In this document: positions 6,800-63,945 of the stretch, one piece after another
How positions within the stretch are numbered: the stretch's first letter is position 1
Layout: the number at the start of each line of letters is the position of its first letter
Source: a virus
DNA length: 64,000 nt
Virus record (IMG/VR): IMGVR_UViG_3300016482_000025
Location: 1-64,000 of that record
Reading direction: 5' to 3' (one strand)
Translations under genes and position numbers: made by a program
Notes under the pieces: model-generated
The model's input: the letters and a program-made list of their open reading frames with translations, nothing else
Told to the model about the DNA's origin: nothing
The model's database searches: none

Positions 6800-6957
6800 T
6801 ATTCATCCTCACCAGCAAGTTTACGAAGAATTTTGTTTGAAAATGTGGCAGGATCGTTATCCCATCCACAATTCATATCGTTAAGAATATAGAAAAGCCA
6901 TGTAGCTTCCTCTACAGAAAGCTCTAGATTGATTACAGGCGGCTTAAGCTTCATCAT
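6799..6957 (-). CDS. hypothetical protein
   Basis: Start moved to ATG 6957 (MMKLKPP), overlapping the upstream stop. Confidence 0.35.
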   Translation of the reverse strand: MMKLKPPVINLELSVEEATWLFYILNDMNCGWDNDPATFSNKILRKLAGEDE

Positions 6958-7369
6958 CAAATCCTTCATCAAATTCATCTTCATCATAACCATCATCGTT
7001 GAGAGTGTCAATGACAATTACACCAAAATTCATCACACCATTGACATTGGTGCAAAGAGTTTCACTTGAAAATTCAACGATGCGGGAATCATCATAGACG
7101 CCAAACTTGGCAATCTCTACAGGAACCAGCCCAATAAGACCGGCATCAACGCCATAAGAGAAGCCGTTGTTATCCCTATACTCACCATCACCATAAGCCG
7201 TGTCAAACGCCATTACAGGCTTGCCACAAGCCATCCCAACAGGCTGAGAGAAGTAGTTACAGGAATGGAGAAGATCACTCCATTCATCGTCAGGAACAGC
7301 ATAGCAAGGATCACCAAGAACATACATTCCAGGCGGAACCAGCACGGTATTTTCATCAATGATCTTCAT
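6944..7369 (-). CDS. hypothetical protein
   Basis: 141-aa ORF with an acidic tail. Confidence 0.5.
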   Translation of the reverse strand: MKIIDENTVLVPPGMYVLGDPCYAVPDDEWSDLLHSCNYFSQPVGMACGKPVMAFDTAYGDGEYRDNNGFSYGVDAGLIGLVPVEIAKFGVYDDSRIVEFSSETLCTNVNGVMNFGVIVIDTLNDDGYDEDEFDEGFDDEA

Positions 7370-7381
7370 TTGCCTATTCCT

Positions 7382-7645
7382 TCAATTCGCACGAACGACA
7401 ATAAACGGATCAATACCAAACTTCAAGTAGATTTTTCCAAAATCATCGGGCTTGGAAAAGAAAATCAAAAAACCCATGGTCCCAACATAGGTAGGAGCAG
7501 AATGAGCATGATCTTCCGCAACCGAAAGGATAAACTTCTTCAATTCTTCCACGGTATATTTCAGATTATCTCGCGCAAAGGAATTGAACATATAGACAGC
7601 GCGAGCAGTATCATCTAGATTTTCATCTTCATATTCAAAGCGCAT
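7382..7645 (-). CDS. hypothetical protein
   Basis: 87-aa ORF downstream of promoter 7669-7697. Confidence 0.5.
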   Translation of the reverse strand: MRFEYEDENLDDTARAVYMFNSFARDNLKYTVEELKKFILSVAEDHAHSAPTYVGTMGFLIFFSKPDDFGKIYLKFGIDPFIVVRAN

Positions 7646-7668
7646 TGTCTTTCCCTTTCGATAGGCTC

Positions 7669-7697
7669 TTTATACAGCCTCACCATCCCATTGTCAA
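7669..7697 (-). promoter_or_regulatory. sigma70-type early promoter
   Basis: Minus strand TTGACA, 17 nt, TATAAA. Confidence 0.6.
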
Positions 7698-7775
7698 CCA
7701 GAAAATTAGGTCAATAATTTGAGACAGCGCGAAAATACCGAAAATAAGCCATAAAATTTTTGTATCCTCATTCAT
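7680..7775 (-). CDS. possible small membrane protein (31 aa)
   Basis: MNEDTKILWLIFGIFALSQIIDLIFWLTMGW; AGAGA upstream of the ATG; overlaps promoter 7669-7697. Confidence 0.3.
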   Translation of the reverse strand: MNEDTKILWLIFGIFALSQIIDLIFWLTMGW

Positions 7776-7782
7776 TTTTCTC

Positions 7783-7811
7783 TTGACACCTGTTTTTGGG
7801 GTTGTTATAAT
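7783..7811 (+). promoter_or_regulatory. consensus sigma70 promoter reading antisense into gene 7865-8095
   Basis: TTGACA, 17 nt, TATAAT; 35 of 40 nt identical to the uvsY-upstream promoter (61931-61970, minus strand). Confidence 0.55.
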
Positions 7812-7825
7812 AAGCTGTGCTTAAA

Positions 7826-7866
7826 AGAGAGATATTAGATTAATTCAAATTCTATGATATCTCTCT
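7826..7866 (-). terminator. 10-bp hairpin after gene 7865-8095
   Basis: AGAGAGATAT-21 nt-ATATCTCTCT; weak T tract on the minus strand. Confidence 0.35.
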
Positions 7867-8095
7867 AAAGCATTTGAACACTATCAATAGTAGCATTACC
7901 GTAATATGTTCCAATCCAAGCCACCACCTTTTTACTATCAAAATTGGTAATAGCATATGCAAGAGAGGAATCCGGCGCCGTGCGACATGTCCAGCCATCA
8001 ACCTTTACCAGATACCTAGGATTACCGTTCTTGGAAGACGGAAGGCGCTTAATGACTTCAAGCTTTCCTCTATGAATGGTGACGTTCTTCATCAT
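7865..8095 (-). CDS. hypothetical protein
   Basis: Start moved to ATG 8095 (MMKNVTIH), because promoter 8117-8145 lies inside the longer ORF. Confidence 0.5.
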   Translation of the reverse strand: MMKNVTIHRGKLEVIKRLPSSKNGNPRYLVKVDGWTCRTAPDSSLAYAITNFDSKKVVAWIGTYYGNATIDSVQML

Positions 8096-8208: not shown

Positions 8209-8484
8209 ATGAAAATGTCTGATCTTCGGAAGTATATCAACATTCGCAAGTATCATTTTGGCAACATGATGCATGGCTATGGTGAGAAGAATGTTCCTTT
8301 GAAGATTGCCCGCATCTATTACAGCATTGCAACCAAGCGTGCCGATGATACGGTCAAGGTTTCGGCTATGGATAAGGAATGGGCTTGCATGGTTGCTGGT
8401 CGGGAATGTTCTATTCGCGAAATCCTTGAAATTAAGGATGATCTGAATAATTGGATTGACGGTAAGGAAAAGGAAGCGGCATAA
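8209..8484 (+). CDS. hypothetical protein
   Basis: ATG 8209 after GGAGA, downstream of promoter 8159-8186. Confidence 0.5.
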   Translation: MKMSDLRKYINIRKYHFGNMMHGYGEKNVPLKIARIYYSIATKRADDTVKVSAMDKEWACMVAGRECSIREILEIKDDLNNWIDGKEKEAA

Positions 8485-8849
8485 TGTCTGGTGATGATGA
8501 TATTCCAAATGTGTATATTCAGCACGGTTCTCATTCCGTAGATAATACTACGGTGCATATTGTTGTTGAATATCCAGAGCCGTCTTTTCTAATTGGAAGC
8601 ACCAAGGCTCTTCGTAATTTTGATACTCTTAACAATATCTTTTATGAAGAGAATGATTATCGTCTTGGTAGTGCAATTATTCGTCTAACTGAAAAGAATG
8701 ATCGTCTTTATATTGCAACAAGCACTAATGACTATGGTTATGATGTTTATGTGAATGGTGTTGAAAACGCCAAGATTGTTGCTGAGACTATTCGCAACAT
8801 TCGTGTTGCGATGAATAACAATAAGCGTATGTCTGCTAAGATCGTGTAA
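8484..8849 (+). CDS. hypothetical protein with N-terminal PNVYIQHGSH motif
   Basis: MSGDDDIPNVYIQHGSHSVD; the same decapeptide as in the ADP-ribosyltransferase island at 48.4-53.4 kb. Confidence 0.6.
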   Translation: MSGDDDIPNVYIQHGSHSVDNTTVHIVVEYPEPSFLIGSTKALRNFDTLNNIFYEENDYRLGSAIIRLTEKNDRLYIATSTNDYGYDVYVNGVENAKIVAETIRNIRVAMNNNKRMSAKIV

Positions 8850-8851
8850 CT

Positions 8852-9361
8852 TTGGACCCTAGGTTCTTAACTGAGCCTAGGGTATCCTCATTTAAAAGGA
8901 TTGTAACTTTGATCACACTTCAAAGGAATTATGAAGGACTTTACGTTTCAGAATTGATTGAAGATAGATACCAAATACTTCAATCTTCTGTAAACAAGGA
9001 ATTCTTCATTTATGACCATTCGAAAGAATCCAATATTGTTTCTAATACTGATTCTATTCTTTATTTTGATTCTATAGAAGCAGCAGAACGTTTTATTAAA
9101 AAGACACCGCCACCAAAAAAGGTGAAAACTTATATTAATAAAACTGTAACTAAGAAGCAATCGGTTCGTAAGGAAACCGCTCTATCTTTGATGCGTGATC
9201 TAATTTTGAATTCAGAATTGGATGATGAACAGATTGCACAGAAAATCCTTGAAACCTATCCGGCTTCCACGTATAATAAGAGCATGGTAAAATTTCAGCG
9301 CAAGAAACTTGTGCAGGAGAATGGTGATGGTGAGTGGTTTGAAGATAACGGAACAGTTTGA
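8852..9361 (+). CDS. hypothetical protein (start unresolved)
   Basis: 169-codon frame with no in-frame ATG in the first ~100 codons; canonical AAAGGAATTATG at 8931 is in another frame. Confidence 0.35.
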   Translation: MDPRFLTEPRVSSFKRIVTLITLQRNYEGLYVSELIEDRYQILQSSVNKEFFIYDHSKESNIVSNTDSILYFDSIEAAERFIKKTPPPKKVKTYINKTVTKKQSVRKETALSLMRDLILNSELDDEQIAQKILETYPASTYNKSMVKFQRKKLVQENGDGEWFEDNGTV

Positions 9362-18090: not shown

Positions 18091-18492
18091 ATGAATATGG
18101 ACCGAAAGCTTGCATCTATTCGTGTGATTGACGCCATTGATCCTATTCCGGGTGCCGATGCAATTGATGTTGCTACTATCGGTGGTTGGAAGGTTGTGGT
18201 CAAGAAGGGTGAATTCAATCCAGGCGACATGTGTGTATATTTTGAGATTGATTCTTGGATTCCCAAGGACGTTGCACCTTTTCTTTTCAAGGGTCGTGCT
18301 TATAATGGTGTCGAAGGTGAGCGTCTTCGCACGGTGAAGCTTAAGGGTGTTACATCACAAGGATTACTTTTACCATTATCAGTTTTAGGTGAAATTGTTG
18401 AAATCAAAGGAAAGAAATATATAAATATTCCTGATAGTAAATCTACGGGAATAGAAGATGATAATTTACAAAATACAGAACAAAATAACTAA
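18091..18492 (+). CDS. RNA ligase (DRB0094-like family), N-terminal fragment of a split gene
   Basis: KLASIRVIDAIDPIPGADAIDVATIGGWKVVVKKGEFNPGDMCVYFEIDSWIP...LKGVTSQGLLLPLS is the N-terminal module of this ligase family; the frame then runs into low-GC homing-endonuclease DNA and stops. Confidence 0.65.
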   Translation: MNMDRKLASIRVIDAIDPIPGADAIDVATIGGWKVVVKKGEFNPGDMCVYFEIDSWIPKDVAPFLFKGRAYNGVEGERLRTVKLKGVTSQGLLLPLSVLGEIVEIKGKKYINIPDSKSTGIEDDNLQNTEQNN

Positions 18493-19165
18493 TAAAATTT
18501 ATATAGGAAAGACTTCTAAATCATTAGAAATTAGATGGAAAAATCATTTAAAATGCGTAAATAAAAAAATCAATAGATGTTTATATGATTCAATAAACAA
18601 ATATGGTATTAATAATTTTATTATAGAAGAATTGTGTAAAGCAACAAAAGAAAATATTAATGATTTAGAAAAATTTTATATTAATGAATATAATAGTTTA
18701 TATCCTAATGGTTATAATATGACAAATGGTGGTGATGGTGGATATACACTAGAAAAATGGTCTAAAGAAGATAGAGAAAAATTATATAAAAAACAAGGCG
18801 AAAAAAGAAAAGGTAAAAGATCATCAGAATGGAGACAAGCAATTTCTTTAGGTTCTATAGAAAGAGAAAAAAATAAAACTATAGAACAAAAGAAAATAAT
18901 TGCTAATAAAATAAGTAAAACTTTAAAAGAAAAAAATATTAAACCACCGTTAAAAATTATGCTTGGTGAAGATAACCCAAATTATAATGATATACCTTTA
19001 GATTCTATTTTAAATATGATAAAAAATAATAAAAATTTAAAAGAAATAGCAAATTATTATTCAGTATCTAGAATAACTATTTCTAATAAACTCAAACCTA
19101 GTGAAAAAACATTTACACAATGGAGAAAATACTATGGCCTTATTGGAAATTATAGAAGGTCTTGA
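18458..19165 (+). CDS. GIY-YIG homing endonuclease inserted in the RNA ligase gene
   Basis: IYKIQNKITNKIYIGKT...YNMTNGGDGG (GIY-YIG core); Lys-rich NUMOD-like C-terminus; markedly lower GC than flanks; TATAAATA at 18420-18427. Confidence 0.8.
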   Translation: MIIYKIQNKITNKIYIGKTSKSLEIRWKNHLKCVNKKINRCLYDSINKYGINNFIIEELCKATKENINDLEKFYINEYNSLYPNGYNMTNGGDGGYTLEKWSKEDREKLYKKQGEKRKGKRSSEWRQAISLGSIEREKNKTIEQKKIIANKISKTLKEKNIKPPLKIMLGEDNPNYNDIPLDSILNMIKNNKNLKEIANYYSVSRITISNKLKPSEKTFTQWRKYYGLIGNYRRS

Positions 19166-40833: not shown

Positions 40834-41571
40834 TTAGTTAGAAAGTAAAGGGATGGAAATTGCATCTTCATGTTTCCATCCCTTTCGTATTCTTGATTGA
40901 TACGTATCTTTTTTTAACCATTCGGGTAATATAATTATTTCACCATTTTTTCTTTTATAAATGTTTGGTGGTTGTTTTATATTACCAGAATTGATACGTC
41001 CTTTTTTCCAAATATTAAAATCATAATTTTGGATGTGTGATTTTAATATTTGTTTATCTATTTGACCATCGTTTATCCACATTTTAGGTAATTTATTGCG
41101 TTCTGATAAATCATTACGTTTCAACCCTAAAGTTGTTGAAACGTAACCATTTTTGAATTTATTTTTTCTGGTAATGGAAAGATTCTTTTTTTGTTCATCT
41201 GTCCACTTATTACCATAATTTGGATTTTTTTCACCAGATATATGACACGAATATGTTTTTCTAAAATAATCATATAACTTAGAATTATATCTCTGATGGT
41301 GTTTGTTCTTCATTTTAAACGAATGTAATGCAAAACACATATTTTTTATATTTTTTGAATCACTACACATTTTTGGTAGTAGAAGATGACAAATATAATG
41401 TTCTCTTGCTGTTAATAATACAAGATTTTGTTTTGAATTATTCCCACCAAGAGATTTAGGGATTATGTGGTGAGATTCATAATATTGACCATCTTTCTTA
41501 GAACGCACTTGACTCTTAGCTTTAGATATGATAGAGTAATACCACGATGAATATTTGTTTTGAAGAAACAT
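40834..41571 (-). CDS. HNH homing endonuclease (Mob-like)
   Basis: ESHHIIPKSLGGNNSKQNLVLLTAREHYICH; NUMOD-like GEKNPNYGNKWTDEQKKNLS; low GC; opposite strand to its neighbours. Confidence 0.75.
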   Translation of the reverse strand: MFLQNKYSSWYYSIISKAKSQVRSKKDGQYYESHHIIPKSLGGNNSKQNLVLLTAREHYICHLLLPKMCSDSKNIKNMCFALHSFKMKNKHHQRYNSKLYDYFRKTYSCHISGEKNPNYGNKWTDEQKKNLSITRKNKFKNGYVSTTLGLKRNDLSERNKLPKMWINDGQIDKQILKSHIQNYDFNIWKKGRINSGNIKQPPNIYKRKNGEIIILPEWLKKDTYQSRIRKGWKHEDAISIPLLSN

Positions 41572-47733: not shown

Positions 47734-48012
47734 ATGTCTTTCGTTCTGTTTATTCTTTTTGTTATTGGTGGTTTTATCATGGGTGGTATTGCCATCGGTA
47801 GATGTATTTCTGAGACACAACCATTTTCAAATAACAGAACGACAATGCTTCTAAAAGACGTGCAGTTTGATATTTACATTGCTGCATTCTTTTGTATTGT
47901 ATTTTATGGTTCTCATGAATATTTAATTGCTTATCTCACTTCCAAGTTTGTAACAATTCTTTGGAATTATGATGAAGACATTGAAGATTATGAATTGTTT
48001 GATAGAAACTAA
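47734..48012 (+). CDS. membrane protein
   Basis: GAAAGGATTATATCATG initiation region; hydrophobic segments. Confidence 0.5.
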   Translation: MSFVLFILFVIGGFIMGGIAIGRCISETQPFSNNRTTMLLKDVQFDIYIAAFFCIVFYGSHEYLIAYLTSKFVTILWNYDEDIEDYELFDRN

Positions 48013-48335
48013 GTCTTAACTTTGAGTCCTCGTAACTTTGGTGAGACATACAACCAAGTTGTTTCTCTTCTCTCTTTTTCAACCGGACAGTTTTCGTTAT
48101 GGTATTTGTCTATCTTTAGTTTTTGAGACGTAAATCCACAATAGATACAGGTTGCTTTTACACCAAAATTATTGAGTCCTTCGGCTACGCGGCGTTGTTG
48201 CGTGGCCTTTCTTTTTTCATTCTCTTCTGGTTTACGCACGTATAATCCACGCCAATTAGGACGATTCTTTATTTCCTCTTGACGTTTCCTGTCTTCGGCT
48301 ACCGCTTGTTTAAGTTGTTCTATTGATTTGACCAT
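48009..48335 (-). pseudogene. probable remnant of a Seg-like homing endonuclease (C-terminal zinc-finger part only)
   Basis: TCIYCGFTSQKLKIDKYHNENCP resembles CPHCNKIGSGTNMRRYHFDKC of the gene at 20566-21222; no GIY-YIG core; only minus-strand ORF in this stretch. Confidence 0.35.
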
Positions 48336-48433
48336 ATAAATATATAGATAACCATTCGGGATAGGGAACGGTGGCTGAATTGGATTTTTGGCTGCATCCA
48401 ATCTATAAATAATACAATTATAGAGGTTTATAG

Positions 48434-49273
48434 ATGAAGACTTTTGCTGATTTTGCCATGCGGAAATTAAACGCAGTCAAATATAAAATACCGGCTGTTG
48501 TTATTACTCATGGCGCACATGCCAATAGACAAGAAATACCTAATTTATACATTCAACATGGCTCCCATTCAGAAGGAAGTCTTAGAGAAGAATATGAAAC
48601 ATTTAGAAGTTTTGAAAGAGGTAAGCACCCTAACCAACATTTAGGTGCAGCTATTTCAGAAGCCGGTATGCATTTGGAAGACCTTCATGCTGACGTGAAA
48701 ATGTCAAACAATGAAATTAGAGCCATTCGTCAATACACAAATACTTCATATGGTTTGAATAGCTCTTTACATCAACACAATGGCGATCTTTCAAGAATTG
48801 CTATTGAACACCAAGACCAAGTAAAATATCTGGATAGTGCAATTAAGAAACATACACTCCCAAAGATGATTTTATTGTCTGGTATTAAAAAAGACCCTAG
48901 AGAACTTACAGAAAATACAAACGGTGTTTTAAAGTCACCAGCTTATGTTTCTACAACAATTCATCCTAGCATCGCTTATTTCTTTGCAAATGATGTGCAC
49001 AGCAAGTATAATGCCGATCCTAAACAACCAGAACAACATATTCTTAAAATCCATGTAAATGAAGGTGAACATGGATTGTATGTTGGGAACAGAAACGTAG
49101 GTTTTAGAAAACTAACCAATTCAACAGAACATGAGGTTCTTCTTCCAAGGGATCATCATTTTAAAATCACAGGAAAAACTACCTATGATGACGCTGGATC
49201 ATTGGTGCATGTCTGGAATACTCATATAATTCCAAGAAAAGAAAATCCTTATACATGGAAGCCAGGAAGATAA
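48434..49273 (+). CDS. Alt-like ADP-ribosyltransferase paralog 1
   Basis: IRQYTNTSYGLNSSL, PAYVSTTI and EHEVLLPR parallel T4 Alt IASYTGSGYRDINDYL, FVSTSL and EAEVILPR; N-terminus MKTFADFAM; IPNLYIQHGSH at aa 35-45. Confidence 0.75.
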   Translation: MKTFADFAMRKLNAVKYKIPAVVITHGAHANRQEIPNLYIQHGSHSEGSLREEYETFRSFERGKHPNQHLGAAISEAGMHLEDLHADVKMSNNEIRAIRQYTNTSYGLNSSLHQHNGDLSRIAIEHQDQVKYLDSAIKKHTLPKMILLSGIKKDPRELTENTNGVLKSPAYVSTTIHPSIAYFFANDVHSKYNADPKQPEQHILKIHVNEGEHGLYVGNRNVGFRKLTNSTEHEVLLPRDHHFKITGKTTYDDAGSLVHVWNTHIIPRKENPYTWKPGR

Positions 49274-49274
49274 A

Positions 49275-50006
49275 ATGTCATTCCTTGATAGATTTAAATC
49301 AACACCAACACCCATTCAATATACAGCAAAGAAACATTATACCAATTTTCTTTATCATAATGCCAATGATCATATTGGTAAAGAAATTTGGGACGTAGAT
49401 AAGAAGCTAAGGGAACATCATCCTTTCGGTCAACTACACGCCAATGAACGTGGTGCGCTTCAATCATACTCAATTGGTTCTTCTGCCTTATCCGATGAAT
49501 TGTTACAAAGCCATAAAGCAAATAGAGAACCAAAACAGAAAGTTGGATATGTGCATCTACCATCCTTGGATAATGCTACAACAAAATTTACTGTTCCTAA
49601 GATGACTGTTTTTTCTGGTGTAAAATTTGATCCGGGTGCCACAACAAAACACTCAAACGGAATCATGTATTCACCATCGTTTATTTCTTCTTCAATTGAT
49701 CCTTCTGTAGCAGATGAATTTGCTGCAACCACAGGTAATGCACACATCATGAGAATACATCTTCATGAAGGACACCCAGGATTATATCTTGGAAATGATC
49801 TAAATAGATCAGCAATGCCTTCCGAGCATGAATTGTTGCTGCCTAGAGGAATTCATTTTAAGATTAATCCAACACCTACTGTGTTTTCACATAATAGTCC
49901 TACAGCTACTAAGCATGTTTGGGATGCTCATGTTATACCAAAGGGTGTAGATATTCACACTTGGCAACCACCAAAAACACCATCCAGAGATTTTACTAAG
50001 GGATAA
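49275..50006 (+). CDS. Alt-like ADP-ribosyltransferase paralog 2
   Basis: LQSYSIGSSALSDEL, PSFISSSI and EHELLLPR; N-terminus MSFLDRFKS; HGSH motif degenerate. Confidence 0.7.
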   Translation: MSFLDRFKSTPTPIQYTAKKHYTNFLYHNANDHIGKEIWDVDKKLREHHPFGQLHANERGALQSYSIGSSALSDELLQSHKANREPKQKVGYVHLPSLDNATTKFTVPKMTVFSGVKFDPGATTKHSNGIMYSPSFISSSIDPSVADEFAATTGNAHIMRIHLHEGHPGLYLGNDLNRSAMPSEHELLLPRGIHFKINPTPTVFSHNSPTATKHVWDAHVIPKGVDIHTWQPPKTPSRDFTKG

Positions 50007-50009
50007 AAA

Positions 50010-52529
50010 ATGAAAAAGTTTAGAGATTTTGTTAGTAAGGTTATTCCAAATCTTTACATTCAACATGGAAGTCATGCATTCCCTAAGAATGACAAAGACC
50101 TTCCAAACGTCTATATTCCCCATGGAAGTCATTCTATACCTCCAAATGACAAAGACCTTCCAAACGTCTATATTCAACATGGAAGTCATGCATTCCCTAA
50201 GAATGACAAAGACCTTCCAAACGTCTATATTCCCCATGGAAGTCATTCTATACCTCCAAAAAAGGTTTCAGAATCAACAGCGGTTGGTGGTATTCACGTA
50301 ACTTTGAAAGAAGAAAAGTTATTTGAATCAATTGCAAACTCTGATGAAATTCATAAAATTCTGGATGGTCATGATAGTTACCAAAAAGAAATTGCATTTT
50401 CAAGCCCACATGTAACACCAGAACATATTCATAAAGCTTTGGATGATGAAAATGAATATGTGCGTGCGTCAGCTATTTCTCACCCAAAAGCAAGTCATGA
50501 AAATATTTCTAAAGCTTTGGATGATGAATCATTCTATATTCGTCGCAGAGCTATTCGTCACGAAAATGTAACACCAGAGCATCTTGATAAAGCAATTCAA
50601 AGGGATAATCCAGAAGACCTTAGAGAAGTAGCTATGAGTCCAAAGGTGCAATCTCACCATCTTGATAAATTATTAGATCATCCAGAAACTTATGTGTCTT
50701 CAAGAGCAGCATCAAGCCCAAACATTCAACCACATCACATTGACAAAATTCTAGATGGAAACAACCATTCCGCTAAAAATTCTGTTCTTCTAAGTGATAA
50801 GCTAACAACAAATCATATTCATAAAATTCTTGATGGTGATGATACAGACGCCAAATCTAGAGTATTGATGAATCCAAATGTCAAAACAGAACATATTGAC
50901 AAAGCCATTAATGATCCTTCTTCTCATGTAAGAAAAAGAGCTATTGTTTCTCCTGCCGCACAATCACACCACATTGACAAAGCATTAAAAGATGAAGATT
51001 GGGGTGTAAGAACAGCAGCATTACAAAGTGATCATCTTCAATCACATCACATTGATGAAATTTTAAGTAATAAATTAAATAGTGTATCTAACTCATCAAA
51101 TGCAATGAGCGTTCTACACCATCCGAATGTTCAACCACATCATTTGGATATGGCATTAAACCATGATGATTGGAGAGTAAGAAGAGAAGTATTTTCTTAT
51201 TACAAAACACCAGTTACACCAGACCATATTACAAAGGGATTGGATGATACACGTCCAGAAGTTAGAGCAGCGGCAGCAGGACACTCAGCGGCAACAGACG
51301 CCCATCTTGACAAAGCTCTAGATGATGGTAATGAACATGTTGTTCATGCAGCAACATCAAATCCAAATCTAAAACCACATCATCTTGATAAAGCAGTTAT
51401 GTCAAGTTATGGTTCTGGTTTAGATCATCTTTCAAATAATAATAATCTTCAACCACATCATATTGATCATATTCTACAACATGGTTCATATGATGCAAAG
51501 TATAATGCTCTACAACATAAAAACTTTACATCAGAACATATCACAAAAGCTTTCAATAATCCAGAAACAGGTAGTGGAACACTTGGAGATATTTTGTCTT
51601 GGCATAAAGACAAAATTACACCAGAACACGTTACAACATTATTGAATCATCCTAATGCTGATAGTTGGGCAAAAGAAAAGGCTCTTTCTTCAAGAGGCGC
51701 AACAAGTGATCATATTCATCAAATATTAGATGATCCAAACGCACACGATTTACACGCCCACGTTGTAAATTACAGTGATAAGTTTGGGAAAGAACATCTT
51801 GACAAAGTTATGAATGGTAACTATAAAGATTGGGTTAAAGAATCTGCAAATAAGAAAGTATTCTTTATGCATGATAACACCCATTTAGGTGATTCTGTTG
51901 GTGATGTTGGAAAACATCTTCAAGAAAGACAAGAAACACATGGGAAAATTCCAATCAGTAAAATTCCAGATGAACACAAATATGCAATTAAAAATTACAC
52001 AGATGGTTCATATGGAATCAATAGTCATTTGATTCATGACGGTCATGATGAAGAAGCTGTAAAGAATGGTCCATATGCAAACCAAGTTAAAAACATGGAT
52101 GCTGCCATTGATTCACACCCTCTACCAAAAATGACTGTGTATTCAGGTATTAAGTTTCATCCACATCAAAAAACAACACCAGATGGTTTATTAAAAACAA
52201 CAGCATATATTTCAACATCAATCAATCCTCAAACATCACATGGATTTACAAGTGATGTATCTCATGGTGGTGAACGTGCAAAACACATTCTTAGAATTCA
52301 CGTTCCAGAAGGACACCCAGGATTCTTTACCGGTAATGACAATGAATTTACAAACCATAATGAACATGAAGTAATTCTTCCAAGAAACACTCGATATAAA
52401 ATTTCTGATGCACCATCAAAATCTTATGCAGATGGATATGGAGATAAAATTCATATGTGGGATACACACATTGTTCCACAACATGTAGAAAATTCTCATG
52501 AATGGGAACCACCAAAGGTTGAGAAATAA
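50010..52529 (+). CDS. Alt-like ADP-ribosyltransferase paralog 3 with four HGSH motifs and a helical-repeat central domain
   Basis: 839 aa; MKKFRDFVSKV then 4 x PN(L/V)YI(Q/P)HGSH; about 19 repeats of about 26 aa; C-terminal IKNYTDGSYGINSHL, AYISTSI and EHEVILPR (52362-52385). Confidence 0.75.
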   Translation: MKKFRDFVSKVIPNLYIQHGSHAFPKNDKDLPNVYIPHGSHSIPPNDKDLPNVYIQHGSHAFPKNDKDLPNVYIPHGSHSIPPKKVSESTAVGGIHVTLKEEKLFESIANSDEIHKILDGHDSYQKEIAFSSPHVTPEHIHKALDDENEYVRASAISHPKASHENISKALDDESFYIRRRAIRHENVTPEHLDKAIQRDNPEDLREVAMSPKVQSHHLDKLLDHPETYVSSRAASSPNIQPHHIDKILDGNNHSAKNSVLLSDKLTTNHIHKILDGDDTDAKSRVLMNPNVKTEHIDKAINDPSSHVRKRAIVSPAAQSHHIDKALKDEDWGVRTAALQSDHLQSHHIDEILSNKLNSVSNSSNAMSVLHHPNVQPHHLDMALNHDDWRVRREVFSYYKTPVTPDHITKGLDDTRPEVRAAAAGHSAATDAHLDKALDDGNEHVVHAATSNPNLKPHHLDKAVMSSYGSGLDHLSNNNNLQPHHIDHILQHGSYDAKYNALQHKNFTSEHITKAFNNPETGSGTLGDILSWHKDKITPEHVTTLLNHPNADSWAKEKALSSRGATSDHIHQILDDPNAHDLHAHVVNYSDKFGKEHLDKVMNGNYKDWVKESANKKVFFMHDNTHLGDSVGDVGKHLQERQETHGKIPISKIPDEHKYAIKNYTDGSYGINSHLIHDGHDEEAVKNGPYANQVKNMDAAIDSHPLPKMTVYSGIKFHPHQKTTPDGLLKTTAYISTSINPQTSHGFTSDVSHGGERAKHILRIHVPEGHPGFFTGNDNEFTNHNEHEVILPRNTRYKISDAPSKSYADGYGDKIHMWDTHIVPQHVENSHEWEPPKVEK
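50061..50262 (+). repeat. 114-bp in-frame tandem direct repeat (about 1.8 copies, exact)
   Basis: Sequence from 50061 recurs identically from 50175; each unit encodes two 19-aa sub-repeats. Confidence 0.9.
50341..51830 (+). repeat. about 19 degenerate coding repeats (about 26-33 aa) of LRV/HEAT-like helical type
   Basis: Recurring xPxVxxEH(I/L)(D/H)KALDDxxxxVRxxAxxxP; counted from 19 H(I/L)xK(A/I)L cores. Confidence 0.7.
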
Positions 52530-53386
52530 TGAAAAGTTTTAAATCATATCTTAAAGCCATGCCTTGGGTTATACCAAATTTGTATATCCAGCATGGCTCA
52601 CACGCCTTCACAGAGGAAGATAAGCAAGAGACGCAAGCGGTTCAAGGGGTATCACAAGTTACCACAGAAGCCTTAAAACCAAAAGTATATAACTTAAATC
52701 ATGATTATTACATGATTAATCATAATTCACATCTTGGTCCTACCATTGATGATGTTGGTAATCATCTTCATGCTTTGCAAGATCAAAAAGAATCAATTCA
52801 TGATATGCCAGAACATGAAAAAAAGGCTGTATTGTCATACGCAGAAAGCTCAAAGGATATTAACAAAGCTTTAATTCATCATGAAGATTTTAATAAAGCA
52901 CATGAAGAAGTAAAACAACATATAAACCTTGAACATTTTGATAGTGCTGTAAATAAACATACTCTACCAAAGATGGTTCTTCATTCTGGTGTTGGTTGGA
53001 ATCCAAGAAAAGAATCAGCAATGTCCAATGGTGTTTTTAGAACATCAGCATATACTTCATCTTCAATTGATTCAGGAACAGCAGACTTTTTTGCTAAAGC
53101 CCATTGGGATCATAAGCTTGGTGATTTTGAAAGACATGTTCTGAGAATTCATGTGCCGGAAGGTCATAAAGGATTGTTTGTTGGAAATGAATATAACGGC
53201 AGCCCATTAACTCATATGGCAGAACATGAGGTTATTCTTCCTCGTAATACAACCTATAAACTAGCTCGTAGCACACCTTCTGCGACTTACTATAAGAGTG
53301 GTGATAGCGTTGCTACACATGTTTGGGATGCTCATATTGTTCCACATGAGGAAGACCCCCATACATGGACACCCCCTAAAAAGTAA
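52529..53386 (+). CDS. Alt-like ADP-ribosyltransferase paralog 4
   Basis: VLSYAESSKDINKAL, SAYTSSSI and EHEVILPR; N-terminus MKSFKSYLKAM; IPNLYIQHGSH at aa 15-25. Confidence 0.75.
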   Translation: MKSFKSYLKAMPWVIPNLYIQHGSHAFTEEDKQETQAVQGVSQVTTEALKPKVYNLNHDYYMINHNSHLGPTIDDVGNHLHALQDQKESIHDMPEHEKKAVLSYAESSKDINKALIHHEDFNKAHEEVKQHINLEHFDSAVNKHTLPKMVLHSGVGWNPRKESAMSNGVFRTSAYTSSSIDSGTADFFAKAHWDHKLGDFERHVLRIHVPEGHKGLFVGNEYNGSPLTHMAEHEVILPRNTTYKLARSTPSATYYKSGDSVATHVWDAHIVPHEEDPHTWTPPKK

Positions 53387-53405
53387 AAGGCCCATTCGGG
53401 CCTTT
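53386..53405. terminator. bidirectional terminator hairpin between convergent genes
   Basis: AAAGGCCC-ATTC-GGGCCTTT. Confidence 0.6.
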
Positions 53406-53721
53406 ACCTTGGTTGATAATTCTGATAATAGAAATGTAAAGCCCAGAATCTACAATATAATTCATGTAAATCCTTATCTTTTACAGTTTCCTTGAAATTT
53501 GAATAATCAATATTATCAATTGATTCAGACATTATATTCTTAAATTCTTCCTTGGAGCAGTATGTTCTATACATGTAATCCGCATTCCAAAGCTCTGTAA
53601 TTTCTCGGTCTGGAAACAACCGTTGAAGAATTTCTTTGCGACGTGCCCGAACAACAAGCTCATTAAAATTCAACTTATCCTTAACTACAGAAATAAAACC
53701 ATCACTCAAACACACCCACAT
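53404..53721 (-). CDS. hypothetical protein
   Basis: 105-aa ORF. Confidence 0.5.
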   Translation of the reverse strand: MWVCLSDGFISVVKDKLNFNELVVRARRKEILQRLFPDREITELWNADYMYRTYCSKEEFKNIMSESIDNIDYSNFKETVKDKDLHELYCRFWALHFYYQNYQPR

Positions 53722-53722
53722 A

Positions 53723-54424
53723 TTATTCTCCTAATAATTTATTCCTTCTCTCTGAGAAATTCTTAAATAATTCTTCATGATTAGAAAGGCCACTGTTTTT
53801 AAATAATCCTTGAACATGATTCATATCCATGTTCCTTACTGCTTCAAGACCATGTTTTTCAGCACCGGGATTTTGTTGAAACACAGTTTTAAATACATGA
53901 GTAGAAGCATTTTCTGGTCTAGAAATTAACGAATGTTTTTCATCAATATCAGGACCATAATCCTTATGTCCACCTTGGGCACGAAAATGGAAAGCACCAC
54001 CAGAGTCAACAGAGTGTAATTCACCTGTCTCTTTATGGCGCTCAATGTTATCATGTTCCAAACCAACAATATCCCAATTCTTGGTTAGAATAGCTGCATG
54101 ATACATTTTACCAATCGTATGTTGTTGATCAGTATTCAAATGAGCAAAATCAGAAGGATGCATTCTTTCTAATTTGTCATTCCAAGGTGTAACAACAGAA
54201 TGCTTACCATTTACCACAGAATAAGACGGTTGTAAAGTCTTAATTCCCATGTGTTCGTGAATTTTTCCTGTTAAATCTTCAACCTTGGCTTGATCAGCAT
54301 TTTGGTAATGTTTAACATAAAACTTTTTACCTGATTCACTGTCAACATGAACGCCGCCCGGATTAGAACCTAGACGGTCGCCCATTTTTTGTAATTCTTC
54401 TTGTAATTGTTTAAATGATTTCAT
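53723..54424 (-). CDS. atypical kinase-like protein with capsid-targeting-like N-terminus
   Basis: MKSFKQLQEEL; LGSNPGGVHVDSESGKKFYVKHY (Gly-rich loop plus Lys); TKNWDIVGLEHDNI (catalytic-loop-like D..N); SVDSGGAF (DFG-like). Confidence 0.45.
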   Translation of the reverse strand: MKSFKQLQEELQKMGDRLGSNPGGVHVDSESGKKFYVKHYQNADQAKVEDLTGKIHEHMGIKTLQPSYSVVNGKHSVVTPWNDKLERMHPSDFAHLNTDQQHTIGKMYHAAILTKNWDIVGLEHDNIERHKETGELHSVDSGGAFHFRAQGGHKDYGPDIDEKHSLISRPENASTHVFKTVFQQNPGAEKHGLEAVRNMDMNHVQGLFKNSGLSNHEELFKNFSERRNKLLGE

Positions 54425-54445
54425 GAGACACCTTTTTTATTGTAT

Positions 54446-55018
54446 TTATGGCGCCTCTGCTACTTCAACCATATCGCTTGGGTTTCTATAGAAACGATGA
54501 TTTCCAATTACAACCGTTCTTGTAAAATTCCTAAAATCCCTAGGAACGGTTCTACCTGAATGGAAGTAGCGACTTCTATCAGTCACGTCCAACAGGATTT
54601 CACGGTCATACAAGGCGATCCAAGCAAGGACTAGGCTTCTATCCCAAACCTCACCAGAAGGCATCCTATGGCGCCTGGAAGTCCACGAAAACTGTCCTGG
54701 CCTGAATACCTCACGGCAGATGTTTTGCCTGTCTTGTGCGCGATTCATTGTTACATTAACAACGGCGATTTGTCCTAACATACGTTCGCCTCGCGCTTCA
54801 TGGTAGATGTTTTGTGCCAAACACACAAGGTTCCTTTCGTTAAAGGCGTTTCTAGGTAGAATGGCAATATGAGCATTAACTAGATGCTCCATAAATCTTT
54901 CGTAGTTAGATTCTGTCTCCCATGGATGAAAAGTATTCGCTACCGCTTGAGACGTAGGCACTACCAATGTTAGAAACGCCATCGTCAGTAGCAGAGCTAC
55001 CTTCTTTAGCTTCTTCAT
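54446..55018 (-). CDS. SleB-like cell wall hydrolase with signal peptide
   Basis: MKKLKKVALLLTMAFLTLVVPTSQA; LAQNIYHEARGE...GQIAVVNVTMNR...PGQFSW. Confidence 0.7.
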   Translation of the reverse strand: MKKLKKVALLLTMAFLTLVVPTSQAVANTFHPWETESNYERFMEHLVNAHIAILPRNAFNERNLVCLAQNIYHEARGERMLGQIAVVNVTMNRAQDRQNICREVFRPGQFSWTSRRHRMPSGEVWDRSLVLAWIALYDREILLDVTDRSRYFHSGRTVPRDFRNFTRTVVIGNHRFYRNPSDMVEVAEAP

Positions 55019-55241: not shown

Positions 55242-55594
55242 TGTTCTAATCCTGTAAAGTCAATATTTTTAATCACATCTGCAATATGGTTGTCAATTAA
55301 TTGTCTTGTTAGTGCAATCTTTTCTGGCACTTCCATATGGTCATAATTATGAAACTTTATAAATGTTCGTGGGTCTTTCATTTCCACTACGATAGCAGAT
55401 TCAAATGTTGAAGGACTATCATAGAAAGAAACTCTTCTTTTTCCTTCAAACACTGGTCCGAAGATTTTCCAAGTCTTGGCTTTTTCTTCCTCATACTTTG
55501 TTTTTAATTCATCACACTTAAAACGCAATGCGCGAATTTCATCTTGCATTGCTTCATAGGAATCTAATGATAAAGATACTGTTCCGTCAGCCAT
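55214..55594 (-). CDS. hypothetical protein
   Basis: 126-aa ORF. Confidence 0.5.
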   Translation of the reverse strand: MADGTVSLSLDSYEAMQDEIRALRFKCDELKTKYEEEKAKTWKIFGPVFEGKRRVSFYDSPSTFESAIVVEMKDPRTFIKFHNYDHMEVPEKIALTRQLIDNHIADVIKNIDFTGLEQWLQEKKKK

Positions 55595-56093
55595 TTGTAA
55601 CTCTCTTCAATTTGCGTTCAATATTCTTCCAATCTTTAAGAGCCTTGTTTCTATTAAAGAAATTAGCATCGTCCCAAAAATAGGTTCCGTTGATGTGTGT
55701 CATTTCGTGTTGAAATAAGCGAGCGGTTCCACCTTCAAGATTTGCAGTTTGGACAGCGCCGGTTATATCATTATATCGCACACGAATCTTGAATGGGCGC
55801 GTAATCTTAACAGAAAGACCGGGAAATGAGATATCTGTTTCTGTGCCCAAAGCCATTTCTGATGACTCATAAACAATCTTCGGATTGAGATATACTGAAT
55901 AAGATTCCCAATTTCGAATAATAAACATAGCAGCATCATAACCAAGCTGGTTAGATGAGAGGCTAACCGCATCATAACGCTTTGCTACTTCAACCATTTC
56001 TGTAGCAACAGCGGCAGCAAGAGCCAAGTCTGTTACCTTTTCTAAGGGTGTTTCTAGATAAGGGGATTTACCCACAATAACTTTTGGTTCCAT
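55587..56093 (-). CDS. peptide deformylase-like protein (divergent)
   Basis: QHEMTHINGTYF retains HExxH; VSLSSNQ aligns to the GIGLAAxQ motif; ETDIS aligns to EGCLS with Cys replaced by Asp. Confidence 0.55.
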   Translation of the reverse strand: MEPKVIVGKSPYLETPLEKVTDLALAAAVATEMVEVAKRYDAVSLSSNQLGYDAAMFIIRNWESYSVYLNPKIVYESSEMALGTETDISFPGLSVKITRPFKIRVRYNDITGAVQTANLEGGTARLFQHEMTHINGTYFWDDANFFNRNKALKDWKNIERKLKRVTNG

Positions 56094-62577: not shown

Positions 62578-63909
62578 TTACATTAGGTTTGAAACCAATA
62601 CTCTACGATAGAACACGTTTGAGTTTTGTTCTAGTGTAGCGTTTGAGTCAGCTTCGGTTGCACCCTTGGCGAATGGATTTGGTGCCATGCCGTAACGTGT
62701 CTTGAAGCCGATACGTGGTTGGAAGTTATCTTCACCAACCGCACGAACCATTTGTAGTGGAACGTATGGGCAGTAGAATAGACCAGCATCGAATGCGCTT
62801 GCACCCTTATATCCAACAGTCATGTAGTTACCTGATGTTGCATATGGATCAATGTAAACACGCATACGACCGTTTAGAACACCGGCAAAGGTATTGCCTG
62901 TATCGTCAACTTGTAGGTTGTTTGAATTTAGAGCGGGAGCGTAGTCTAGAACACCAGCCATTTGAAGAGCAGAAGCTACGTCAGATGAACAGATTAGAAT
63001 GTTACCCTTACCTCTACGTGTATCACGTGCGATTTGGTTAGATTCACGTTCGATCTGGAACATTAGACCCTTAAACTTTTCAACCATCCAACGTCCGTTT
63101 GAATCAACGTCAAGGTCGAATGTGCCTTGTGTTGTAACGTTTGTGTTAGCACCACGGACAGCAGTTAGGTTAACAGTTCTTACGATTTCACGGTTGATTT
63201 CAGCCATGATTTCAGTTGAAAGAATGTTGGCTAGCTCTGTTTCAGCATCTAGACCATGGATAGCCTTCAAGTCTTGTGCTAGTTCTAGAGTGTATTCAGC
63301 CTTTAGTGCACGTGCCTTAGCAGTTACAGTGACCTTTTCGATTGAGAAAGCCATTTCGTTGAAGGCAGTATTACCAGAGGCACCTAGTTGTTCTGACTTA
63401 GCAGTAGATGTTCCACCACCGAAGTTGAATGTTTCTGAGTTACCTGTTGGTGCACCAGCGTTACCAACGTTACCATTGGCTAGACCAAGGTTTGTGTTAG
63501 CAGCGCCAAAGTAAGCAGAACCAGAGAAACCAGTGTTGGCTTCGTTGTAGAAGGCTTCTGTTCCTGATTGGTTGCCATAACGTGAGCGCATTGCGAAGAT
63601 CAAGCCTGTTGGGCCTGTCATTGGCTGCACACCACAAATGTCATAAGCAATTAGGTTAGGTGCTGTTCTACGGACTAGGCTGATAAGAACGGGATCGTAG
63701 TTATCAATGTTTGAGCCGGTTTGGTTAGCAGGAACACCAGCTTCCAAAAGAGAAGTAGGAGCATAGCCGCGTGTTTCGCGAAGAGCTTTCTCTGTGTTCT
63801 CCAATAGAACGGCGGTTACACCGCGACGATGTGAGTCAGCAATCTTTGGTAGAGCTTCATGCTCTAGGATTGGCTTCCACTTGTTTAATACTTCTTCATT
63901 TAGATACAT
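62578..63909 (-). CDS. gp23: major capsid protein gp23
   Basis: LNKWKPILE, VRRTAPNLIAYDICGVQPM, LAQDLKAIHGLDAE, FQPRIGFKTRYG and FYRRVLV blocks are collinear with T4 gp23. Confidence 0.97.
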   Translation of the reverse strand: MYLNEEVLNKWKPILEHEALPKIADSHRRGVTAVLLENTEKALRETRGYAPTSLLEAGVPANQTGSNIDNYDPVLISLVRRTAPNLIAYDICGVQPMTGPTGLIFAMRSRYGNQSGTEAFYNEANTGFSGSAYFGAANTNLGLANGNVGNAGAPTGNSETFNFGGGTSTAKSEQLGASGNTAFNEMAFSIEKVTVTAKARALKAEYTLELAQDLKAIHGLDAETELANILSTEIMAEINREIVRTVNLTAVRGANTNVTTQGTFDLDVDSNGRWMVEKFKGLMFQIERESNQIARDTRRGKGNILICSSDVASALQMAGVLDYAPALNSNNLQVDDTGNTFAGVLNGRMRVYIDPYATSGNYMTVGYKGASAFDAGLFYCPYVPLQMVRAVGEDNFQPRIGFKTRYGMAPNPFAKGATEADSNATLEQNSNVFYRRVLVSNLM

Positions 63910-63937: not shown

Positions 63938-63945
63938 TATTTATA
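63938..63945 (-). promoter_or_regulatory. T4-type late promoter upstream of gp23
   Basis: Minus strand TATAAATA, with 28 nt between the motif and the ATG; AAGGAG RBS between them. Confidence 0.65.

Follow-up and report, generated by a model that had tools for sequence, protein, structure and literature searches.

Which proteins does a T4-like phage place in its head for delivery into the next host? The Alt protein of T4 is a head-packaged ADP-ribosyltransferase (ART), present in about 40 copies per head, and its N-terminal peptide is removed by gp21. An island of genes at positions 48434 to 54424 of a stretch of viral DNA of 64,000 nucleotides (nt) (IMG/VR record IMGVR_UViG_3300016482_000025, positions 1 to 64,000; the window, below) raises the question of whether a whole set of enzymes may be carried in this way. 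The island holds four tandem plus-strand genes encoding proteins with an ART domain and, convergent to them, a gene encoding a kinase-like protein. An earlier note on this DNA had read the five proteins as a packaged and injected set with a shared leader resembling the T4 capsid-targeting sequence (CTS). The coordinates and lengths that it gave for the five open reading frames (ORFs) were all exact, and the N-termini that it quoted (MKTFADFAM, MSFLDRFKS, MKKFRDFVS, MKSFKSYLK, and MKSFKQLQEEL) were correct. Our analysis makes it fairly likely that the island encodes phage-head cargo that would be expressed late, enter the prohead, be trimmed, be retained, and be injected. We infer the late timing, targeting, cleavage, injection, enzyme activity, and targets from the features described below.

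ADP-ribosyltransferase domains of the island

All four plus-strand proteins matched Pfam PF03496 (ADP-ribosyltransferase exoenzyme) with 42.9-63.4 bits, above the cutoff of 23.4, and all four matched PHROG 802, "Alt-like RNA polymerase ADP-ribosyltransferase". The shared ART domain proposed earlier was thus borne out. The fold comparison covered the AlphaFold model of full-length paralog 4 (predicted local distance difference test score, pLDDT, 86.6), which matched C3, VIP2, CDTa, iota toxin (Ia), and Plx2A at probability 1.0, with a target-normalised TMt of 0.6-0.7 against the ~200-residue C3 and Plx2A chains and a query-normalised TMq of 0.43-0.51. Profile alignment (hhalign) to the catalytic domain of T4 Alt gave a probability of 94% and placed STS on STS and ExE on ExE, so that the structure and profile comparisons with Alt, C3, and VIP2 both supported the assignment. 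In the window paralogs the ExE region reads EHE(V/L)(I/L)LPR. Searching 1.84 billion representative proteins with a profile yielded 3,342 members of the family, and the first Ser of STS and both Glu residues of ExE are invariant in 40 diverse members. An invariant Ser-Gly aligns with the R-S-E Arg of C3 (IMLFR-G) and T4 Alt (LYRS); in paralog 4, the domain has Ser153 at the Arg position, together with SSS and EHE. The label "Alt-like" conceals that the catalytic Arg of the R-S-E signature by which the Alt/VIP2 clade is defined (PMC5512222) is gone. The T4 Alt strings that had been quoted for comparison were inexact, as T4 Alt actually reads REYVGSGYVDINNAL, FVSTSL, and EMEVILPR.

The first of the four genes encodes paralog 1 (279 amino acids [aa]; 48434-49273), which begins with the leader MKTFADFAMR and has its ART domain at aa 89-251. 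The start codon of paralog 2 (243 aa; 49275-50006) lies 2 nt past the stop codon of paralog 1, and the protein, which has neither the leader nor the HG.H peptide described below, begins near N.N.H(L/I)G, the conserved sequence with which the mature domain starts. Paralog 3 (839 aa; 50010-52529; leader MKKFRDFVSK) contains about 500 residues of HEAT-like repeats of ~27 aa (about 50322-51809) ahead of an ART domain at aa 651-802 (51960-52415), and paralog 4 (285 aa; 52529-53386) begins with MKSFKSYLKA. The pairwise identity among the four is 37-44%, with most of the divergence in the loop ahead of ExE. Paralogs 1, 2, and 4 each have a nearer ortholog (65-71%) on other contigs, while the top match of paralog 3, P0142 (45%), has the same long repeat-bearing architecture and an ART domain that is no closer. 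Judged by these sequence comparisons, the four paralogs are old, diverged lineages.

A leader resembling the T4 capsid-targeting sequence

The first ten residues of T4 IpII, MKTYQEFIAE, are annotated as removed from the precursor (GenBank X04567), and mutational work on the T4 CTS assigned targeting mainly to residues 4 and 7 and processing to residues 8 and 10 (PMC9026906). A leader of the form M-K-(S/T/K)-F-x-x-(F/Y/L) is found on paralogs 1, 3, and 4 and on the kinase-like protein. The window has 643 ORFs that start with ATG and span 50 aa or more; MK[TSK][FY] opens four of them, all within the island. The targeting residues are F4 with F7 or Y7 in the three ART paralogs and F4 with L7 in the kinase-like protein. 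A CTS-like N-terminus had been claimed for all five proteins; it holds for these four and was ruled out for paralog 2 by the leader alignment.

The same positions are conserved beyond the window. Among the leaders compared (31 of the ART family and 33 of the kinase family), F or Y stands at position 4 in 30 and 31, respectively; at position 7, all 31 ART leaders have an aromatic residue, and 32 of the kinase leaders have F, L, Y, or I. Position 10 is Glu in 28 of the kinase leaders and in 11 of the ART leaders. The leader is carried by 32 of 36 single-domain ART-family representatives. The processing determinants (a hydrophobic residue and Glu) are found in the kinase-like protein as L7-Q8-E9-E10 and in two head-module proteins, described next, as ITE and VSE, whereas the ARTs have LRE, LKE, and FTE downstream instead. 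Because the ART leaders lack the Glu at position 10, any processing of these proteins would be expected further downstream.

The two head-module proteins of this phage are encoded outside the window, on contig L003, at 6832-7158 (108 aa, MKSFKQFITE) and 7160-8029 (289 aa, MKTYKQLVSE). They have CTS-like leaders, lie between the portal and the prohead protease, and gave no family match; T4 gp67 and gp68 occupy the same position but have no such leader. On another contig (L015), a 162-aa protein (1400-1888, MKSFKTFCES) encoded just upstream of a protein with ten ART units is a candidate leader-bearing cargo.

A repeated peptide of the putative pro-region and protease-type sites

After the leader, the ART proteins carry a peptide of the form (I/V)P-x-Φ-x-x-x-HG-x-H(S/A) in one to four copies. 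Copies of IPN(L/V)YI(Q/P)HGSH are found once in paralog 4 (IPNLYIQHGSH, 52571-52603), once in canonical form in paralog 1 (IPNLYIQHGSH, 48536-48568) together with the variant IPAVVITHGAHA (48488-48523), and four times in paralog 3 (50046-50246). The copies in separate genes differ at synonymous sites; therefore, it is the peptide that is conserved, and a repeat at the DNA level was ruled out. The copies within paralog 3 reflect a recent 114-nt duplication (50044-50260, plus strand; 1.9 tandem copies, 96% identical) with two motif copies per unit. The near-identical contig L001 (7596-10001) has one 114-nt unit fewer and encodes a protein of 801 aa compared to 839 aa in the window.

One to three copies of [HQ]G.H[SA] are present in the first 110 residues of 30 of the 36 single-domain representatives, and 89 distinct instances gave the consensus K-x-(I/V)-P-x-Φ-x-(P/I)-(S/V)-H-G-x-H-(S/A), with a Lys-rich stretch after it. 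In 74 viral loci, the motif core was found in 36 of 39 ART ORFs compared to 10 of 2576 other ORFs, which ties the motif to the ART domain and argues against a general tag. As a general cargo tag it was rejected, since these loci hold no convincing carrier outside the ARTs save a 121-aa protein and its homolog. This protein (8484-8849, plus strand) starts with MSGDDDIPNVYIQHGSH and has the motif, yet lacks both an ART domain and an MKxF leader; it is the sole non-ART carrier found. Its 57%-identical homolog P0274 retains the first 18 residues almost unaltered and keeps the motif. The 121-aa protein might bind ART domains in trans, or it might be a separate cargo. In the model of paralog 4, residues 1-30 have a pLDDT of 72-89 and the linker at residues 38-57 falls below 50, which suggests that the motif segment packs on the ART domain.

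Scans for the motif gave no match in public viral contigs and four in public metagenomes, all of them out of frame or in unrelated ORFs. Residues 14-33 of T4 Alt (L008), LPITNLYPKKKIPQIFSVHV, loosely resemble the (I/V)P-x-Φ…H pattern and are in part duplicated in alt.-1; the likeness of residues 24-33, KIPQIFSVHV, may be a coincidence, and we do not rely on it.

The motif is followed by a site of the type cut by prohead proteases. A tripeptide [LIM]-x-E lies at most 25 residues past the last motif copy in 27 of the 36 members, at a median distance of 8 (background 12.6%; binomial p about 1e-17), and seven of the nine members that miss it have V or F at its first position. The consensus of this site is [LI]-K-E, then E or D. 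LRE at aa 50-52 of paralog 1 (48581-48589) and LKE at aa 99-101 of paralog 3 (50304-50312) are instances of it; both tripeptides, and the LQE of the kinase-like protein, were found where the earlier note had placed them. The corresponding tripeptide of paralog 4 is FTE, at aa 27-29.

Similar sites recur in giant members of the family, which have up to 9-10 ART units. In six such proteins, 38 of 45 unit ends (W-x-V-x-P-H) are accompanied within 16 residues by [LIMV]-x-E-[ALMTSV], compared to a background of 6.8%; of the seven exceptions, five fall at the C-terminus of the protein itself and two at internal boundaries between units. The C-termini of single-domain ARTs do not have this insertion. 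T4 Alt is also cut C-terminally (PMC9026906). The gp23 (major capsid protein) propeptide ends in LLE|A here and in LTE|A in T4. The 10-unit protein P0127 (2343 aa) is encoded at L015, 1949-8980, and a SegE-type GIY-YIG gene lies downstream of it.

The kinase-like protein and its small partner

The convergent gene (53723-54424, minus strand) encodes a protein of 233 aa with the leader MKSFKQLQEE, in which L7-Q8-E9 lies at 54398-54406. Its model has a pLDDT of 90, with the leader outside the fold (residues 1-16 below 50). The best matches were Helicobacter CtkA and HipT/HipA-type kinases (Foldseek probability 1.0, template-modelling [TM] score 0.55-0.60), in agreement with the kinase-like identity proposed earlier. 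All of 40 homologs share, without change, the glycine-rich loop GSNPGG, the Lys of YVK, the E, HDN, and DxGG. Sequence searches of Pfam, PHROG, NCBIfam, and the PDB gave no family match for this protein.

One nucleotide downstream of the kinase gene lies an ORF of 105 aa (53404-53721, minus strand), predicted to be co-transcribed with it, that has no leader and contains 35 invariant residues; profile searches of Pfam, PHROGs, NCBIfam, and the PDB gave only a sub-threshold similarity to Hsp33. A small ORF of ~101 aa directly follows the stand-alone kinase gene in 26 of 35 evaluable viral loci. An ART gene lies within 2.5 kb of the stand-alone kinase in 12 of these 35 loci, and is convergent in 11 of the 12; an obligate kinase-ART cassette is not supported, given the small share of loci in which the two are adjacent. 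At the same locus, a related contig has two ART genes instead of four, then convergent genes for proteins of 103 and 233 aa. Two distant genomes (177 and 153 kb) have the kinase, an ORF of ~101 aa, and a convergent ART in other neighbourhoods.

The kinase domain is also found fused to ART domains. Giant proteins of two cultured phages combine it with PF03496 at the C-terminus: one in Yersinia phage fHe-Yen8-01 (2146 aa; annotated "phage particle associated protein") and one in Pseudomonas phage Jeremy (1213 aa). Within BFVD, a library of viral structures, the kinase fold (TM score up to 0.79) occurs in proteins annotated as ART or portal. Proteins of 389-1799 aa with a kinase-like domain were encoded at L055, L057, L066, and about 25 other viral loci; three of them also hold an ART domain and many have no recognised partner domains. 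These proteins are a pool of uncharacterised polyvalent-type proteins.

Transcription signals and genomic setting

The octamer (T/C)ATAAATA lies 18-28 nt ahead of the ATG codons of paralog 1, the kinase-like protein, and gp23. The T4-type late-promoter motif TATAAATA at 48404-48411 (plus strand) ends 22 nt upstream of the paralog 1 ATG, and GAGG lies in the interval; a second copy is at 48335-48342. Ahead of gp23, TATAAATA (63938-63945, minus strand) ends 28 nt before the ATG, and the late-promoter-like CATAAATA (54443-54450, minus strand) ends 18 nt before that of the kinase-like protein. The terminator that had been proposed between the convergent units was found as a GC-rich, palindromic, terminator-like stem-loop, AAAGGCCCGAATGGGCCTTT, with 8 pairs, 5 of them GC (53386-53405). 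The homing-endonuclease remnant that the earlier note had placed at 48009-48335 fared differently: the ORF at this place (48009-48401, minus strand) had no significant match in Pfam, PHROG, or NCBIfam, and the label was dropped for this reason. Elsewhere in the window, TATAAATA stands ahead of a gene for a GIY-YIG endonuclease of the group-I-intron type (18458-19165, plus strand; TIGR01453, E 1.5e-20), and CATAAATA stands ahead of a gene (40834-41571, minus strand) with a weak HNH-type match (E 8e-4, below cutoff). These two genes are probably late-expressed homing endonucleases.

The source of the window is a distant, uncultured T4-like myovirus. Its gp46 homolog is about 43% identical to those of Caulobacter phage Cr30, Sinorhizobium phage phiM12, Stenotrophomonas phage DLP6, and cyanomyoviruses, and a search of 50,697 phage genomes gave no near-identical record. 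At its end the window reaches the gp23 gene (62578-63909, minus strand), and the head module extends past it. Public-assembly contigs with identical paralog 4 and gp23 run on into a T4-type head module; one of them, L003, encodes Peptidase_S77 (gp21; 8225-8932), T4_CASP (a gp22-type scaffold), Portal_T4, and Gp23. One protein of the window is also found on a 162-kb contig.

Over 48001-54000, the plus-strand ART genes have a GC skew of -0.06 to -0.09 and a positive AT skew, compared to a GC skew of +0.09 to +0.27 in other plus-strand genes of the window; this anomaly may reflect their His/Pro/Ser/Thr/Asn/Lys-rich composition or a separate origin. Next to the island are a gene for a cell-wall hydrolase (54446-55018, minus strand; Pfam Hydrolase_2 and an endolysin PHROG) with an N-terminal, signal-like hydrophobic segment, MKKLKKVALLLTMAFLTLVVPTSQAVA, and a phage peptide deformylase gene (55587-56093, minus strand).

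Proposed mechanism and alternative explanations

In the proposed mechanism, both convergent units would be transcribed late from T4-type late promoters. The leader of the three ARTs and the kinase-like protein, as the equivalent of the T4 internal-protein CTS, would bring them into the scaffolding core of the prohead. A gp21-type prohead protease of the S77 family would then cut the kinase-like protein straight after its leader, at L-Q-E (residues 7-9), and the ARTs further in, at [LIMVF]-x-E past one to four motif copies. The motif peptide would thus be part of a removable ART pro-region, where it probably packs against the ART domain, and the poly-ART proteins of relatives would be cut at every unit boundary. 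Retained in the head, the mature enzymes would pass into the next host together with the DNA, where a Ser/Thr-kinase-like enzyme and four diverged ARTs, one of them with a HEAT-like arm, would modify different host targets. The 105-aa partner, which has no leader, would remain in the producing cell and probably controls the kinase.

The head loading and injection proposed in the earlier note are favoured, at the level of sequence, by the leader, the protease-type sites, the promoter motifs, and the particle-annotated fusion protein; the proposal falls short in that the leader is present on only four of the five proteins. Several observations weigh against this explanation. First, paralog 2 begins with MSFLDRFKS, and its orthologs P0004 and P0135 also lack the leader. 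Second, the Glu at position 10, required for processing in T4, is absent from the three island ART leaders, and paralog 4 has only F-T-E, which is non-canonical compared to L/I-x-E. Third, TATAAATA occurs 6 times in the window compared to 6.8 times expected by chance; because the overall count equals chance, only the placement of these motifs is informative. Fourth, the island genes come last in a long run of plus-strand genes, most of them non-structural, whose other members look early or middle. Fifth, the particle-associated annotation belongs to a fusion protein of a phage that is not T4-like, and no close homolog was found in cultured phages by megablast or by tblastn with paralog 4. Finally, the first catalytic position is Ser or His throughout the ART family, and ART activity is not assured because the catalytic Arg is missing.

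Some of these observations would be expected if the ARTs and the kinase were intracellular take-over enzymes that are not packaged, like T4 ModA and ModB or the T7 kinase, and if their N-terminal region were regulatory or autoinhibitory. T4 itself has the tandem, non-packaged ART genes modA and modB (cited in PMC5512222), and a regulatory role would be in keeping with the pLDDT of the motif segment, which suggests packing on the ART domain, and with the position of the genes at the end of a non-structural block. The near restriction of the motif to ART proteins and the missing position-10 Glu keep this explanation alive. Against it speak a leader that is common to two head-module proteins and an unrelated kinase and that agrees with the T4 targeting positions 4 and 7, the strong enrichment of protease-type sites at fixed positions, late-promoter motifs placed like that of gp23, and a kinase-ART fusion annotated as particle associated. 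We regard it as unlikely, although it is the main rival.

The loss of the catalytic Arg leaves room for another explanation, in which the ART domains are pseudoenzymes and the proteins are abundant, basic internal head proteins that serve as filler in the manner of the T4 internal proteins (IPs), in DNA binding, or in anti-restriction. Every member examined has Ser or His in place of the Arg that defines the clade, and the pro-regions are rich in Lys. Against it, none of 40 diverse members varies in the two Glu of ExE or in the first Ser of STS, and the domain recurs in about 3,300 proteins, which is the pattern of an active site under selection. The paralogs also differ most in the loop before ExE, as expected of enzymes with different targets, and some members have Y-H-G at the Arg position. 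This resembles the His-Gly of ARTs of the diphtheria-toxin/PARP type. We consider the pseudoenzyme explanation improbable.

It is likewise improbable that the kinase, the small ORF, and the ART genes form a toxin-antitoxin-like or exclusion module acting in the producing cell, for example against competing phages, as HipA and HipT do with small partners: the fold is indeed nearest to CtkA and HipT/HipA and the leaderless partner is strongly conserved after the kinase, but the kinase bears a CTS-like leader with a conserved Glu and a late-promoter-like motif, the partner resembles neither HipS nor HipB nor another known family as far as could be detected, and the kinase domain recurs within giant proteins annotated as virion, portal, or ART.

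A more general explanation can also be formulated, which we offer tentatively and hold to be possible but doubtful. The leader, the HG-x-H(S/A) repeats, and [LI]KE could constitute a modular "pro-cargo" code that loads an expandable battery of enzymes into the head, from single ARTs to polyproteins of 10 units cut within the capsid by the prohead protease, in a large, as yet uncultured branch of the T4-like phages. Part of this battery might be ARTs of a chemistry not recognised before, Arg-less (Ser/His-S-E) and acting on new classes of substrate, and a HipA-like kinase that is injected and restrained by a dedicated, unpackaged partner.

Comparison with known systems

Compared to T4 Alt, the island ARTs share several features. 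They have a fold of the C3/VIP2/Alt type, with YTSSSI and EHEVILPR in place of FVSTSL and EMEVILPR; they are encoded by a T4-like myovirus with gp21- and gp22-type head machinery; and they have a predicted N-terminal propeptide ending at a site of the (L/I)-x-E type. They differ in five respects. First, Ser or His replaces the catalytic Arg. Second, they are 243-285 aa long, apart from the 839-aa paralog with HEAT-like repeats, whereas T4 Alt has 682 aa. Third, the leader is of the IPII/IPIII type, MK(T/S)F..F, and not MELITE as in Alt. Fourth, there is an extra pro-region of HG.H(S/A) repeats. Fifth, there are four tandem paralogs, and relatives have up to 10 units per polyprotein.

Like the CTS of T4 IPI-IPIII, MKTYQEFIAE, the island leader comprises ten residues with aromatics at positions 4 and 7 and would represent one tag on diverse cargo, and the kinase-like and head-module proteins have a hydrophobic-x-E site at residues 8-10 or 7-9. 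Unlike the T4 internal proteins, which are small and basic, the cargo here would consist of predicted enzymes, the ARTs and the kinase; and the ART leaders do not have the position-10 Glu, the predicted cut lying 30-100 residues in.

The idea of capsid-borne, early-acting ARTs and kinases, and of proteins with multiple ART copies, is shared with polyvalent proteins and with MuF- or portal-fused effectors (Iyer et al. 2017, 2022); giant proteins that contain ART domains or are annotated as portal also hold relatives of the kinase domain. Unlike polyvalent proteins, which include kinases and up to 12 ART domains of the H-Y-D type (PMC5512222), the window has these domains in separate genes, one of them (paralog 2) leaderless, whereas relatives join kinase and ART in proteins of 543-2146 aa. 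The island ARTs are of the Alt/VIP2/C3 sequence type, and the poly-ART units of relatives are parted by L-x-E|A sites of the prohead-protease type in place of embedded peptidase domains.

The kinase-like protein resembles HipA, HipT, and CtkA in its predicted fold and kinase-type invariant residues, and differs from them in its CTS-like leader, its putative phage late-gene context, and a partner without detectable kinship to HipB or HipS. The ejection proteins of giant phages (phiKZ; gp53 and gp54 of SPN3US) offer a further parallel. They are diverged paralogs sharing a propeptide with several Glu-ending protease motifs, for which a role in prohead targeting was inferred (PMC5694885). These phages belong to another group, the cleavage motif there is A/S-x-E, and the cargo is neither ART nor kinase; their processing was shown by mass spectrometry, whereas that of the island proteins is predicted from sequence.

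The earlier note had claimed an injected arsenal much larger than any described for T4-like phages, and this overreaches. Head packaging of ARTs, tagging by a CTS, and proteins with multiple ARTs were all known before. According to a survey of viral NAD+ systems, myoviruses often package ARTs in the head (PMC9503650); the packaging of Alt, the use of the CTS as a portable tag that may load various proteins in T4-like phages, and the presence of CTS-like leaders on further basic T-even phage proteins have been described (PMC9026906); and proteins with up to 12 ART domains are known, as noted above. In the open full-text literature, we did not find a description of a composite pro-region in which a leader of the IP type, HG.H(S/A) repeats specific to ARTs, and an [LI]KE site are combined; of Alt/VIP2-type ARTs without the Arg; of poly-ART chains punctuated by L-x-E|A sites; or of a leader-tagged CtkA/HipT-like kinase with a conserved partner.

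Implications

If the proteins of the island are packaged, T4-like phages would not be confined to one injected enzyme, Alt, but could send in, as the DNA enters, a diversified set of protein-modifying enzymes that can be adjusted quickly. Such adjustability is indicated by the shift in copy number between near-identical genomes, by the presence of two or four ART genes at one locus, and by the up to 10 units per polyprotein. The analysis yields testable sequence rules for the loading and processing of cargo beyond T4, and the leader and pro-region could serve in engineered protein delivery by means of phage heads. For ART enzymology, a large subfamily that has STS and ExE but no canonical Arg poses a question of its own. 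Finally, the island points to a HipA/CtkA-like kinase that would be delivered by a phage and that has a dedicated partner.

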